Part shown: positions 986-36,175 of the stretch, one piece after another
Numbering within the stretch: the first letter of the stretch is position 1
Layout: each line of letters starts with the position of its first letter
Origin: Oscillatoriaceae cyanobacterium M33_DOE_052
GTDB taxonomy: Bacteria > Cyanobacteriota > Cyanobacteriia > Cyanobacteriales > Laspinemataceae
Reading direction: 5' to 3'
DNA: 46,229 nt
Assembly (NCBI GenBank): GCA_015296065.1
Contig: DVDU01000250.1
Location: 1 to 46,229 of the forward strand
The notes under the pieces: model-generated
Databases searched by the model: none
What the model saw: the letters and a program-made list of their open reading frames with translations, nothing else
Told to the model about the DNA's origin: nothing
Position numbers and translations under genes: made by a program

Positions 986-1050
986 AGAAACCGGGTTTCT
1001 TAACCAGGTCTTGGTGAAAATACCAAGATTATCGCAGAAACCCGGTTTCT
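986..1050. repeat. Small dispersed repeat of about 65 bp bounded by two AGAAACCCGGGTTTCT palindromes (MITE-like); copy 1
   Basis: The sequence is CAGAAACCGGGTTTCTTAACCAGGTCTTGGTGAAAATACCAAGATTATCGCAGAAACCCGGTTTCT. The same architecture recurs at 5939-6003 (inverted), 44232-44296, 32156-32220 and 13452-13523. Confidence 0.7.
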
Positions 1051-3598: not shown

Positions 3599-3632
3599 CA
3601 ACCCGGTTTCTCACAGAAACCGGGTTTTTTTT
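3599..3632. repeat. Paired AACCCGGTTTCT / AGAAACCGGGTTT palindromes followed by a T8 run. Likely an intrinsic terminator for the M23 gene; belongs to the ~65-bp dispersed-repeat family.
   Basis: The sequence caacccggtttctcacagaaaccgggtttttttt lies immediately after the stop at 3595. Confidence 0.55.
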
Positions 3633-5938: not shown

Positions 5939-6003
5939 AGAAACCGGGTTTCTGCGATAATCTTGGGTTCTCAACCGAAATTTGGTTAAGAAACCCGGTT
6001 TCT
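5939..6003. repeat. Copy 2 of the ~65-bp dispersed repeat (inverted orientation). It is followed by a 2.5x tandem repeat, caaggacaaaagaatccctacc, at 6021-6075.
   Basis: AGAAACCGGGTTTCTGCGATAATCTTGG...TTAAGAAACCCGGTTTCT is the reverse complement of the 986-1050 architecture. Confidence 0.7.
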
Positions 6004-10164: not shown

Positions 10165-10175
10165 TCCTTGGTCCA

Positions 10176-10227
10176 ATTGATAATTGATAATTAACAATTG
10201 ATAATTATCAATTATCAATTATCAATT
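10176..10227. repeat. Palindromic heptamer array, (AATTGAT)n switching to (AATTATC)n, of the STRR-like TTGATAA family
   Basis: ttgataattgataattaacaattgataattatcaattatcaattatcaa lies 35 nt upstream of the maf start. Confidence 0.8.
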
Positions 10228-21267: not shown

Positions 21268-21349
21268 GATAATTAACAATTGATAATTAACAATTGATAA
21301 TTGATAATTAATAATTATCAATTATCAATTATCAATTGTCAATTGTCAC
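21268..21349. repeat. Palindromic TTGATAA-family heptamer array ending 13 nt before the aat start codon
   Basis: gataattaacaattgataattaacaattgataattgataattaataattatcaattatcaattatcaattgtcaattgtcac. Confidence 0.8.
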
Positions 21350-21361
21350 TGGACAAATGAA

Positions 21362-25570: not shown

Positions 25571-25632
25571 ATTGATAATTGATAATTGATAATTGATAAT
25601 TGATAATTGATAATTGATAATTGATAATTATC
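25571..25632. repeat. (TTGATAA)n array of about 8 units, 13 nt upstream of the start of the 24689-25558 gene
   Basis: ttgataattgataattgataattgataattgataattgataattgataattat. Confidence 0.8.
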
Positions 25633-26002
25633 CCCGTGACTTCATAGGGGCAGGGTGAGCAATGCCCAAGACAATCTCTAAGGCGACCCCACAGCCATAT
25701 CAGTAGGCATTGCCCACCCGACAATCTTTTGCAGGCTGACAGAAATCTATCATATCCCACCCTTGGGGACTTCTGGACTAGAGACCCCAAGGCTCCATAA
25801 CAGATTTAGGGCTATTTCCGGTCACAACAAAGACAGTGACGAGAGCGACTACCATCTCCCAACGACACCAAGAGAGCTGCAGCCATCACCACGAAGCAAA
25901 AACCGTGGACAGTTGAGTAAGTGACCTCAAGAGGCGATTTTACTTCTGACGCCGCCAAAGCCAATCGGAATCAGTTAGCAGTTATGAACGGGTAGGTTCA
26001 AA

Positions 26003-30813: not shown

Positions 30814-31962
30814 CTAGCCCCGTAACTGCACAGGCATGAGTAAATGGGTCATTTTGACGCCACCGAGGGGGACGATGATTACTGGGGAATTAGCAGAATT
30901 TAGCTGCATGGAAATTTCGGTGGAGGGGAGGTTTTTTAACGATTCCATTGCATATTTGGCGTTGAAAGCGATATCTAGGCTGTCTCCAGAAATTTGGGCG
31001 GTCATGGATTCGCTACCGCTGCCCACATCGGCGGCTTCTACGGAGAGGGATAACTGCTGGGTTTCGCTGTCAATAATGAATTTCACGATGTCGTTTTTTT
31101 GGCTGGCCAAAATGGCGATGCGATCGAGTGCGCCGATGAGCTGGCGGCGGTCAACTGTGACCTGAATTTGGAACCGATCGGGCAGTAACTGGCGGTAAGC
31201 GGGGTATTGCCCCTCAATAGTGCGGCTAGTCAGGCGTTGGTCGGCCAGTTCAAACACTACTTGTCCTTGGTCCAGATGAAGATTTACCAATAGCGGTTGG
31301 TCAGAGGTGGTATTTTGTCTAATGCCAATCATCTTTTCCAATTCCCGCAAAGCCTTCGCGGGAATTGTCACCTCAAATTCCTCGTTAGAGTCAGTTTCAC
31401 TGGAATTCTCGGTTTCCACCACAGCCAAACGGTGTCCATCGGTGGCGGCAAATTCCAGGGTATCTGGTCCGAGGATCAGGTGAACCCCCGTCAACACTTG
31501 TTTGGTTTCATCGCTACTGGTGGCAAACACCGAACCGCGCAAGCCTTCCAAGAGAGCTTCTGCACTCAGTTGCACAGATTGGTCATTTTCAATCTCTGGC
31601 ATAGATGGGAATTCTTCCGCACTCATCCCCCGGACTTGATACCGTCCTGACTGGGAAGTGAGGTTAACCGTGTTCTCGCTGGTGTCATTGTCGATCGTCA
31701 CTTCACCGGCTGGCAATCTAGCGGCAATATCGTGCAGCAGCTTGGCGGGGATGGTAATTTCGCCAGCAGCCTCCACCTTCGCCGCAAAAGCCGTGCGCAG
31801 TCCGAGGCTGAGGTCAAAAGCAGTTAATTCTACCTGCTGGGAGTCAGTATCGGCTTTAACCAGAATATTGCCTAACACTGGTTGTGCAGGACGGGAGGGA
31901 ACGGCGCGACTGACAAAGGAGAGGTGGCTGTTCAGGTCGCTTTGGTTGCAGAGAAATTTCAT
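30814..31962 (-). CDS. dnaN: DNA polymerase III beta subunit (sliding clamp)
   Basis: MKFLCNQSDLNSHLSFVSRAVPSRPAQPVLGNILVKA and the three-domain clamp length of 382 aa are diagnostic. The ORF extension up to 32061 was rejected. Confidence 0.9.
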   Translation of the reverse strand: MKFLCNQSDLNSHLSFVSRAVPSRPAQPVLGNILVKADTDSQQVELTAFDLSLGLRTAFAAKVEAAGEITIPAKLLHDIAARLPAGEVTIDNDTSENTVNLTSQSGRYQVRGMSAEEFPSMPEIENDQSVQLSAEALLEGLRGSVFATSSDETKQVLTGVHLILGPDTLEFAATDGHRLAVVETENSSETDSNEEFEVTIPAKALRELEKMIGIRQNTTSDQPLLVNLHLDQGQVVFELADQRLTSRTIEGQYPAYRQLLPDRFQIQVTVDRRQLIGALDRIAILASQKNDIVKFIIDSETQQLSLSVEAADVGSGSESMTAQISGDSLDIAFNAKYAMESLKNLPSTEISMQLNSANSPVIIVPLGGVKMTHLLMPVQLRG

Positions 31963-32084
31963 CAGGTGTGATCTAGTTATGAAGGTTGGGGCGGCTATAG
32001 TGCCTCCGGCGTCCGGCATCTCGCCGGAGTTGCCTTGAGGAGCGCTGCTACGCACGCCCATCTGGGAGGGTATATTTTAGCACT

Positions 32085-32310
32085 GCTGTGGGGTGGATGT
32101 GCGCCAGCATTTGGGGGGATGCCTGTGGAAAAACTGTGGAAAACTGCCCCAATTTGTCCCAGAGGAGAAACCCGGTTTGTTCACCAAATCCTCCTGATCA
32201 AACCTAGATTGTCGCAGAAACCCGGTTTCTGGCGGCGGTGAATTTTCCACAGCAAGGGGGGTATTTTTCCACAAAAAATGGGGTGTTTTTTCACAGAAAG
32301 GGGGCGATTT
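32085..32310. other. oriC: Chromosomal replication origin (oriC) core: a DnaA-box cluster between dnaA and dnaN
   Basis: TGTGGAAAA occurs twice (32114-32122 and 32125-32133). TTTTCCACA occurs twice (32233-32241 and 32255-32263). TTTTTCACA occurs once (32277-32285). Weaker boxes are near 32085-32098. A ~22-nt periodic GGGG...T5CCACA...A-tract pattern is present. An AT-rich stretch, tatattttag, lies at 32061. Confidence 0.7.
32156..32220. repeat. Copy of the ~65-bp AGAAACCCGGTTTCT-bounded dispersed repeat, inserted within the DnaA-box cluster
   Basis: AGAAACCCGGTTTGTTCACCAAATCCTCCTGATCAAACCTAGATTGTCGCAGAAACCCGGTTTCT. Confidence 0.6.
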
Positions 32311-32364
32311 CCTGTTTTAGCTGCTTTTGTTAGTGCGGTTGGTGCGGTAAATGGGGAGGCGATA

Positions 32365-33756
32365 CTAACGTGGCGCCTGACGGCGATCGCCACTACGAGC
32401 TTTCAGAGCATCCTCGATCTGGCGGAGCTGCTGGGCAAACTCCGGCTCGGCGTGGTGGCGCTGGGCGACTTTTTCACAACTATAGAGGACGGTGGTGTGG
32501 TCTTTGCCGCCAAACTCTTCCCCAATTTTCGGCAAGCTCAAATCTGTGTGCTGGCGCATTAAATACATACCAATTTGCCGCGCTTGGCTGATTTCCCGGC
32601 GGCGAGAATTGCTCTTGAGGTCTTCGACAGATATGCCAAAGGTTTCCACTACTACGGCCATTACCGCCTCGGGACTGGTGCCAAACTGGGGGGTTTGGGG
32701 TTCTAAAATCGGGGCAATGTTGGCCACAGTCATGGGTAAACCGGATATGGAGATATAGGCGATCGTGCGAATCAAAGCCCCCTCTAGTTCCCGAATGTTG
32801 GAGGTGTAGCGTCCGGCGATGTACTCGATCGCCTCTCGCGGCAAGCGCATATTTTCATACTCCGCCTTTTTTTGCAAAATCGCCATCCGCGTTTCCAAGT
32901 CGGGAGCCTGGATATCAGCAATCAAACCCATTGAAAACCGGGAAGTCAACCGCTCCTGCAAACCCTTAATTTGATTGGGAGGCCGATCGGCAGCCAATAC
33001 CACTTGCTTACCCGCCTCATGCAGAGTATTAAACGTGTAGAAAAACTCCTCTTGGGTGTATTCCTTCCCCTCGATAAACTGGATATCATCCACTAACAGC
33101 ACATCCGCCGCCCGGTAATGCTCCCGAAAGCCCTGCATCCCGTCCTTGCGAATCGCCGCAATCAGGTCATTAGTAAACTGTTCCGTGGAAACATAAAATA
33201 TCTTGGCCTCGGGGAAAATCTCCAGGCGATAATGTCCGATCGCCTGCATCAAATGCGTTTTCCCCAACCCCACCCCGCCACACAAAAACAAAGGATTAAA
33301 CTCCCGTCCCGGCGACTCCGCCACCGCCAGAGACGCCGCATGAGCCATCCGGTTATTCGCACCCACCACAAACCGAGAAAAAGTGTACTTAGGATTCAGT
33401 TCTGTGGGACGATGGGAGTGACTGGCGCCGTTGACCATCCCCGAAACATCAGAAACCTCCGAGGAAATAGGCTTCGGCCAGAAATATTCCCCATCCGCCA
33501 CATCCCCAGTCGCCGTGGTAATTTCAATTTCTATCCGCTGCCCCAACAAGTCCTGCACCACATCAGCAATGGTTTTCACATAATATTTTTGCAACCAATT
33601 CCGGGCAAACGGGTTAGGAGTGCAGATCGTCAAGCAGTTATTTTCCAGGCGTTCCGCCCGAGCGGTTTTAATCCAAGTTTCAAAAGTGGGGCGGCTCAGC
33701 TGCAGCTGTAGCCGCTCCAATACTTGATTCCAGAGACTTTCCAGCAGAATTTGCAC
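32365..33756 (-). CDS. dnaA: Chromosomal replication initiator protein DnaA
   Basis: The AAA+ Walker A motif [10 protein letters not shown], the DnaA signature region and the C-terminal DNA-binding helix ([23 protein letters not shown]) are present. The length is 463 aa. Confidence 0.95.
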
Positions 33757-33794
33757 TGATTACCTCGCCGTAGTTCGGGGACGGGGATGGGGAG

Positions 33795-33867
33795 ATAATT
33801 AACAATTAACAATTAACAATTGATAATTATCAATTATCAATTATCAATTATCAATTATCAATTATCA
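33795..33867. repeat. Palindromic TTGATAA-family heptamer array 39 nt upstream of the dnaA start codon
   Basis: ataattaacaattaacaattaacaattgataattatcaattatcaattatcaattatcaattatcag. Confidence 0.8.
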
Positions 33868-35295: not shown

Positions 35296-35304
35296 TTTCT
35301 GGGG

Positions 35305-35356
35305 ATAATTGATAATTATCAATTATCAATTATCAATTATCAATTATCAATTATCC
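35305..35356. repeat. Palindromic TTGATAA-family heptamer array between htrA and def
   Basis: gataattgataattatcaattatcaattatcaattatcaattatcaattatcc. Confidence 0.8.
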
Positions 35357-35382
35357 CCACCCTCCCCACACCCTCAAACACC

Positions 35383-35917: not shown

Positions 35918-36175
35918 AATCACGCCGTGCCCTTTCGTGGGGTTGGTCACGGCGTGATTAATATTATTTCTCACATGAATTAAGCTAATGATGCTGTGCC
36001 TTTTCGTGGGGGTGGGCACGGCGGGATTAAAGTTGTTTGTCATATGAATTAAATTAAGGATGCCGTGCCCCTACGGTTGGCTATTGGTAGGGGCACGGCG
36101 TGATTGAGATTATTCGTCACATGAATAACATTGACGTAGCTGTGCTACTACGGGTGCAATTAACCGATATCAACC
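35918..36175. repeat. Tandem array of about 3.5 units of roughly 70 nt. Each unit has a 12-13-bp perfect hairpin built on a CACGCCGTGCCC / GGGCACGGCGTG core, followed by a conserved AT-rich box TCACATGAATTA.
   Basis: The units fall at about 35918-35989, 35990-36058, 36059-36130 and a degenerate unit at 36131-36175. The stems are aatcacgccgtg/cacggcgtgatt and gccgtgcccctac/gtaggggcacggc. The array lies between the convergent def and MVP genes. Confidence 0.6.

Follow-up and report, generated by a model that had tools for sequence, protein, structure and literature searches.

Cyanobacterial replication origins are recognised by clusters of the DnaA box TTTTCCACA beside dnaN, the accepted oriC signature in this phylum (PMC4674748), which has been validated in S. 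elongatus and found to be bound by DnaA in Anabaena and Cyanothece (PMC4674748, PMC7198777). In S. elongatus PCC 7942 the unwinding module reads TTTTCCACATTTTCCACA-GCCC-CTACTACTACTG on the complementary strand, and DnaA unwinds it in vitro only if boxes and trios are both present (PMC8287927). The basal unwinding system (BUS) of B. subtilis and other bacteria is made up of tandem DnaA boxes, a short GC spacer, 3'-GAT-5' DnaA-trios and AT-rich DNA. Synechocystis 6803, Nostoc 7120 and Synechococcus 7002 have kept dnaA and replicate independently of DnaA-oriC (PMC7198777), and GC skew is irregular in most cyanobacterial genomes (PMC7198777).

The locus considered here is the spacer between dnaA and dnaN of Oscillatoriaceae cyanobacterium M33_DOE_052, analysed within a contiguous stretch of 46,229 bp, hereafter the window. 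It holds a conserved cluster of DnaA boxes into which a small palindromic repeat was inserted long ago, and it is compared below with the corresponding loci of close and distant relatives.

The dnaA-dnaN spacer and its DnaA boxes

An earlier note on this DNA, made from the sequence alone, had delimited the spacer between dnaA and dnaN; its limits proved exact, and both flanking genes encode full sets of Pfam domains (Table 1). The DnaA protein shares 94% amino acid identity with that of [Phormidium] sp. ETS-05. The exact box TTTTCCACA occurs four times in the window, always inside the spacer and never in the remaining 45.8 kb, while shuffles of the window contain 0.57 copies on average and none of 100 reaches four. 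With the single-mismatch form TTTTTCACA, these boxes bear out the claim of the earlier note that at least five are present, in both orientations and including one variant. The periodicity of about 22 nt which it ascribed to them holds for the three plus-strand boxes, spaced exactly 22 nt apart, but not for the minus-strand pair, whose period is 11 nt; TRF returned periods of 22 and 11. The cluster is thus far denser than chance would produce, as is expected of a DnaA-dependent oriC, and it has the expected location, adjoining dnaA and dnaN and conserved in relatives.

Table 1 Features of the dnaA-dnaN region and full copies of the dispersed repeat in the window
Feature	Position	Strand	Details and basis
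dnaN (beta clamp)	30814..31962	(-)	382 aa; three DNA_pol3_beta Pfam domains; protein identical to HIK12654.1 (M33_DOE_052)
dnaA-dnaN spacer, predicted oriC / DnaA-box cluster	31963..32364		402 bp; holds all 4 exact boxes of the window; homologous clusters among 95 related spacers
TGCTAAAAT, extended -10-like motif, candidate dnaN promoter	32074..32082	(-)	inferred from sequence and conservation; block invariant in close lineages
Private 22-bp insertion, window only	32100..32121		between tandem pair and conserved downstream block; five-lineage alignment
Tandem pair TTTTCCACA-gt-TTTTCCACA	32124..32143	(-)	2-bp gap, 11-bp period, faces dnaN
Exact boxes TTTTCCACA	32124-32132, 32135-32143, 32243-32251, 32265-32273	(-), (-), (+), (+)	sequence scan
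Decayed DnaA-box remnant	32154..32163 (about)	(-)	intact as TGTGGAAAA in L168, 10 bp from tandem pair; alignment of close relatives
65-bp palindromic repeat, degenerate origin copy	32166..32230		15-nt terminal inverted repeats 32166-32180 and 32216-32230; family alignment
Three-box array, 22-bp period	32243..32304	(+)	boxes at 32243 and 32265 exact, at 32287 TTTTTCACA; faces dnaA
Fifth box TTTTTCACA, one mismatch	32287-32295	(+)	sequence scan
T-periodic stretch	32309..32344	(+)	relic of dnaA 3' coding end; homologous to C-terminal coding DNA of the 471-aa DnaA (L165/ETS-05)
dnaA	32365..33756	(-)	463 aa; Pfam DnaA_N, Bac_DnaA, Bac_DnaA_C
Canonical repeat copy	986..1050		intergenic; -20.5 kcal/mol, z -7.2
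Canonical repeat copy, inverted	5939..6003		intergenic; family alignment, fold
Canonical repeat copy	44232..44296		7 bp past a stop codon; scan, fold

The spacer has a GC content of 52.7%, above the window mean and the highest among 47 spacers compared. The 30-bp GC profile reaches its minimum (0.27) in the box array itself and reveals no AT-rich DNA unwinding element anywhere in the spacer. GC skew across the window follows gene orientation, with a local cumulative maximum, no minimum and no switch of the origin type, and 46 kb is too short a distance for it to decide the position of an origin. A simple sigma-70 scan of the spacer detected neither a full promoter nor a relevant terminator. 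Rfam returned zero matches at the gathering threshold in the window and, for the spacer at E<=1, one meaningless snoRNA match. Other assemblies with identical DnaA are identical throughout this region too and so are uninformative on strain variation.

Elsewhere in the window, an 881-aa ORF (36170..38815, minus strand; gene call in L081) carries the Pfam domains Vault, Vault_2/3/4 and MVP_shoulder, making it a major-vault-protein homologue in a cyanobacterium. The syntenic stretch of ETS-05 and L165 has no such gene, pyruvate kinase and PFK coming after def there.

Box order in distant relatives

DnaA-based scans of genome and metagenome contigs yielded 160 loci at 71-78% identity, none closer than 78%, from Microcoleus, Coleofasciculus, Laspinema, Oscillatoria, Crinalium, Nostoc and other taxa; the 95 loci in which dnaN comes after dnaA were used as the relative set. 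DnaA boxes are found in all but two of these 95 spacers, the exceptions being L083, with one near match, and L122, with zero. The 46 genome spacers contain 2-9 exact boxes each, and nearly all the exact boxes of each locus of about 9 kb fall in the spacer.

The box-bearing spacers share a common order, '<...<-10->-2->-45->-0->', which, read from dnaA to dnaN, consists of one to six boxes in the TGTGGAAAA orientation, often a gap of 9-10 bp, the pair TTTTCCACA-N2-TTTTCCACA, 44-45 bp and a gapless second pair. The tandem pair with a gap of 2-3 bp is present in 72 of the 95 related spacers (the window is the 73rd of 96 counted), and the '<-10->-2->' core in 34 of the 95. Since this order is conserved in relatives and boxes of this sequence beside dnaN are the oriC signature, the cluster of the window is homologous to a bona fide origin type. 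The two arrays lie 8-11 bp apart in many relatives, with wider intervals of about 62 bp in Microcoleus (61-62), 99 bp in the window and 182 bp in Microcoleus sp. CSU_2_2 (L035), and tolerance of length in this stretch, which spans 8-182 bp across loci, is therefore a general property.

Close relatives

Relatives at the genus level, namely L165/L166, L167, L168 and ETS-05, were reached via the protein-cluster route only. Their dnaA and dnaN share 89-92% nucleotide identity with those of the window, and their spacers align well. Across the five close lineages, window included, whose dnaA and dnaN differ by 8-10%, the tandem pair is invariant save for its 2-bp gap, and the three-box array with its 13-bp spacers is nearly so; box arrays, inter-box spacers and helical phasing are more conserved in the five-lineage alignment than the flanking genes. 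In L165/L166, L167 and ETS-05 the last TGTGGAAAA is separated from the tandem pair by 18 bp and the repeat is absent. L168 has a copy of the repeat at the site where the window has one, the two matching at 59 of 65 bases. Between this copy and the tandem pair it retains an intact TGTGGAAAA, whose distance from the pair is exactly the 10 bp of the deep ancestral core.

In ETS-05 dnaA lies 1.9 Mb away from the box cluster, the boxes having remained with dnaN. In its genome (CP051168.1) dnaA is found at 1.67 Mb (L163 10001-11416) and boxes plus dnaN at 3.565 Mb (L164 7750-8000), on the same strand. The break lies past the dnaA stop codon and before the first box, and Calx-beta, HemolysinCabind and DUF4347 genes flank both junctions.

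Downstream of the tandem pair, a block (window 32004-32029 and 32040-32085) which contains the TGCTAAAAT motif on the minus strand is invariant in the five close lineages. Beyond it lies an inverted repeat rich in GC, which reads CTCCGGCG-N10-CGCCGGAG in the window; its stem varies in sequence by lineage, and it may form a dnaN leader hairpin.

The dispersed repeat family

The repeat inside the spacer belongs to a family with the form AGAAACCsGGTTTsT-N35-AGAAACCCGGTTTCT, of which the origin copy is AGAAACCCGGTTTGT-N35-AGAAACCCGGTTTCT. The earlier note had recognised it as a dispersed repeat, which is correct, and had placed it at 32156-32220, 10 bases to the left of its true span (32166-32230). 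In addition to the full copies of Table 1, partial copies, either singlets or short doublets, occur at 3615, 13452/13509 and 45020/45040. The 15-mer has 25 matches in the window (both strands, up to two mismatches) against 0.14 expected, and every full and partial copy in the window sits between ORFs. The 15-nt ends are conserved across genera, with related copies in Microcoleus, and the 35-nt interior is loosely conserved.

The canonical copies form strong 65-nt single-strand hairpins (-16.3 to -20.5 kcal/mol, z -6.8 to -7.5). The fold of the origin copy is weak (-7.5 and -9.2 kcal/mol on the two strands, z about -1.9), and that of the L168 copy is similar. The combination of inverted ends, less conserved spacer and hairpin which characterises REPINs is therefore found in the canonical copies and weakly in the origin copy (z about -1.9), and the distribution in the window is extragenic with degenerate singlets, as in REPINs. 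Features of MITEs are found as well: 15-nt inverted ends, a length of 65 bp, no coding capacity, four full copies in 46 kb and relatives in Microcoleus. Around the window copies no consistent target-site duplication was detected, and the sequence of the repeat was not found in the searchable literature. With its inverted ends, variable spacer, hairpin, extragenic position and singlets, the family matches the description of REPINs (PMC3116915) and that of MITEs generally.

Tandem heptamer arrays of STRR-like appearance, mutually matching, are located at 33777-33867, 21278-21352, 10174-10227, 25571-25635 and 35299-35367 of the window and resemble an array in ETS-05 (L163 1612-1687). Heptamer runs flank the repeat copy at 986 and also fill the dnaA-proximal part of several Microcoleus spacers.

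History of the insertion

That a repeat is tolerated inside the predicted origin, as the earlier note had proposed, is confirmed: the insertion is genuine and long-standing, being shared with L168 at about 9% nucleotide divergence and absent from three close lineages. Comparison of orthologous spacers, which the same note had suggested as a way of learning whether the repeat is strain-specific, gave a negative answer, with a same-site copy found in the sister lineage L168. As the divergence between these two copies, 6 of 65 positions, matches that of the flanking genes, and as they occupy the same site, the insertion is older than the split between the window and L168. Since that split both copies have changed about as fast as the genes beside them, and a different terminal repeat has been damaged in each lineage. 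The description of the repeat as separating boxes 1-2 from boxes 3-5, also given in that note, fits the window, but L168 reveals that the arrangement is not so simple, the repeat being situated there between two boxes of the dnaA-proximal array; the inner box flanking it is intact in L168 and has since decayed in the window.

Filled and empty orthologous sites are both observed, the filled state having 13-21 bp more, among them a DnaA box, and showing no duplication. The ETS-05 group was considered as a plain empty site and rejected as such, because the filled state also has the extra DnaA box, which matches the ancestral '<-10->-2->' core. From the alignments, two histories would fit the data equally: either the common ancestor of the window and L168 acquired the element, or the insertion took place earlier and a deletion later removed the element together with one box in the ETS-05 group.

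In Microcoleus sp. CSU_2_2 the stretch between array and tandem pair measures 182 bp, against 61-62 bp in its siblings, and the extra DNA of about 120 bp contains a related element which folds well (-17.8 kcal/mol). This is an independent event in the same part of the cluster. An imperfect direct repeat of 14 bp (AAGTTTTTGAGTAT / AAGACTTTGAGTAG) brackets the insertion (L035 5560-5790). Its two halves align to a single site in the siblings, and it may be a long target duplication or point to repair-mediated insertion. Other Microcoleus and two metagenome loci have repeat copies between the boxes and dnaN.

The unwinding module

An unwinding module was taken to consist of a box or box pair with three or more DnaA-trios within the next 16 bp (PMC8287927). 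The spacer contains just minimal runs of three NTN triplets, no more than the chance minimum; two of them overlap neighbouring boxes and one lies within formerly coding dnaA DNA. No CTA-type trio run is present in the spacer or elsewhere in the window. Neither the window nor any of the four close lineages has the unwinding module of S. elongatus, a second tandem pair with GCCC-CTACTACTA after it, and CTA-type trios and an AT-rich stretch are absent from them as well. Among the distant relatives, 17 of 95 spacers have the second pair followed by GCCC/GGCC, CTACTACTACTA and AT-rich DNA, the arrangement of a textbook BUS.

One candidate for a trio element, at 32309-32344, with 10 of 12 NTN triplets and located 13 bp past the outermost box, was rejected. 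In L165 and ETS-05, whose dnaA is longer, the homologous DNA is the 3' coding end of that gene, and the 3-nt periodicity of the candidate is therefore a coding relic. The C-terminus of DnaA is 8 residues shorter in the window and L168 (463 aa) than in ETS-05 and L165 (471 aa; window 32365-32390 compared with L165 9700-9751), and the old coding end of dnaA persists as non-coding DNA within the spacer.

Many distant relatives (L008, L011, L013, L016, L018, L042, L051 and others) conserve the motif AGTA(A/T)AAATAC(TT), placed 2 bp from the innermost TGTGGAAAA on its dnaA-proximal side and reading as four NTN triplets on the opposite strand. It may be a second, dnaA-facing trio element; L168 retains 'aaatactt' at this position.

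Interpretation and alternative explanations

From these comparisons we consider it reasonably probable that the spacer is an oriC in which a conserved DnaA-box cluster carries an old, decaying passenger repeat and DnaA binds arrays facing outwards. DnaA would most likely bind two arrays that face away from each other, one being the tandem pair with its 11-bp period, directed towards dnaN, and the other the three boxes with their 22-bp period, directed towards dnaA; at periods of 11 and 22 bp the boxes share one helical face. Before the window and L168 separated, the dnaA-proximal array was entered by a mobile repeat of the REPIN/MITE type, palindromic, non-coding and 65 bp long. In related origins unwinding takes place on the dnaN side, so that the repeat would lie on the opposite side of the cluster, and it is presumably tolerated because it is away from the unwinding side, in a stretch which already varies about twenty-fold in length. 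The origin copy is now decaying, with mutated terminal repeats, a lost internal palindrome and weak hairpin potential, and would seem to behave as a passenger rather than a working part. The spacer had been taken in the earlier note to point to the replication origin. This holds insofar as the cluster is homologous to cyanobacterial oriC, and less firmly as to firing, given that trios and an AT-rich stretch are absent. That replication starts here is something we infer, because the unwinding module is missing, the spacer is GC-rich and several cyanobacteria replicate without DnaA-oriC.

These same features can be read differently, as those of a retired or repurposed origin whose boxes descend from oriC and now regulate dnaN or titrate DnaA, replication starting elsewhere or without DnaA. 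We regard this as possible but rather unlikely. All five close lineages lack the unwinding module, which 17 of 95 distant relatives have and which works in S. elongatus, and the GC-rich spacer has no AT-rich stretch; clear trios are nevertheless also missing in many relatives, including about 20 Microcoleus, and about 15% of predicted bacterial origins are likewise without clear trios (PMC8287927). Independence from DnaA-oriC arose several times in cyanobacteria (PMC7198777), and the DnaA-independent Nostoc 7120 has only a poor predicted unwinding module, but DnaA is intact here, with all four domains, and no alternative origin has been identified. A regulatory role is suggested by the position of the tandem pair, 22 bp upstream of the invariant TGCTAAAAT facing dnaN (44 bp in the window, with the extra 22 bp). 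The changes seen in the window, namely the insertion of the element (also in L168), the decayed box and the 22-bp insertion, would, like the separation of dnaA in ETS-05, be signs of relaxed constraint on origin geometry. On the other hand, arrays, spacers and phasing outlast the flanking genes in conservation, which fits an ordered DnaA oligomer better than simple repression. In its phylogenetic form the proposal would be that the clade of M33_DOE_052, L168, ETS-05 and their allies represents a further independent loss of DnaA-oriC-dependent initiation, in which the ancestral unwinding module disappeared, the spacer turned GC-rich, the boxes were kept as a dnaN regulator and relaxed geometry let the repeat settle and dnaA separate by 1.9 Mb in ETS-05; we judge this unlikely.

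It is very improbable that the repeat has been domesticated, that is, kept as a bendable or cruciform spacer or as a binding site which sets the distance between the arrays. Its retention in both the window and L168 since their split and the independent insertion of a related element in the equivalent stretch of Microcoleus L035 would agree with such a role. However, the orthologous copies differ at 6 of 65 positions, the same as neighbouring genes, suggesting no special constraint; each lineage has mutated a different terminal repeat, leaving the hairpin potential mostly gone, and three close lineages manage without the repeat. That the box-like 9-mers have clustered by chance and serve no function related to DnaA is favoured only by the shortness of the motif and is effectively refuted by four exact copies in 402 bp against 0.57 expected in 46 kb and by an architecture conserved across 95 loci.

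If the favoured reading is right and the origin works, its dnaA-proximal half absorbs insertions of 65-120 bp in at least two lineages, which helps to define the spacings that matter. If it does not work, the clade would offer a natural series for studying how cyanobacteria abandon DnaA-oriC initiation, beginning with a full unwinding module, passing through boxes alone and ending in boxes with an insertion and a detached dnaA, with ETS-05 as a culturable member with a complete genome. Either way, origins are over-called in this phylum when boxes alone are counted.

Comparison with known systems

The locus resembles the oriC described in S. elongatus PCC 7942, Anabaena PCC 7120 and Cyanothece ATCC 51142 (Ori-Finder/DoriC), which has the same TTTTCCACA at the same place upstream of dnaN, with boxes in both orientations (PMC4674748). 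According to the literature dnaA is usually separate from cyanobacterial oriC (PMC7198777), whereas in the window it adjoins the cluster. The oriC of S. elongatus has TTTTCCACATTTTCCACA-GCCC-CTACTACTACTG, while the window is without this module and its cluster is interrupted by a mobile repeat. As in the BUS, the tandem pair of the window has its boxes in the same orientation, one helical turn apart, and it faces dnaN; unlike the BUS, the window and the four close lineages have no trio run or AT-rich element past any box. The module of S. elongatus and the 17 related spacers share the layout of the B. subtilis BUS.

The insertion is comparable to IS6110 in M. tuberculosis, a mobile element fixed in the dnaA-dnaN origin region of a viable lineage, in a region which has been hit repeatedly (PMC3701491 and its references 18, 19 and 40). 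IS6110 is a 1.35-kb autonomous insertion sequence, whereas the element of the window is 65 bp long, non-coding, palindromic, situated between boxes, old and decaying. The likeness to REPINs (PMC3116915) extends to conserved inverted 15-mers, a less conserved 35-nt spacer, a hairpin, intergenic position, degenerate singlets and a family spread across genera; in contrast to REPINs, each terminal 15-mer of the window repeat is itself palindromic, and no consistent target-site duplication is seen.

The prediction of an oriC from TTTTCCACA boxes beside dnaN is routine, and a mobile element in a dnaA-dnaN origin has its precedent in IS6110. Modestly new are the long-term fixation of a small REPIN/MITE-like element between DnaA boxes, the second, independent case in Microcoleus and a clade without the canonical unwinding module. 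Set beside these known systems, the predicted origin is an ordinary one, whose mobile-element history is of modest interest.
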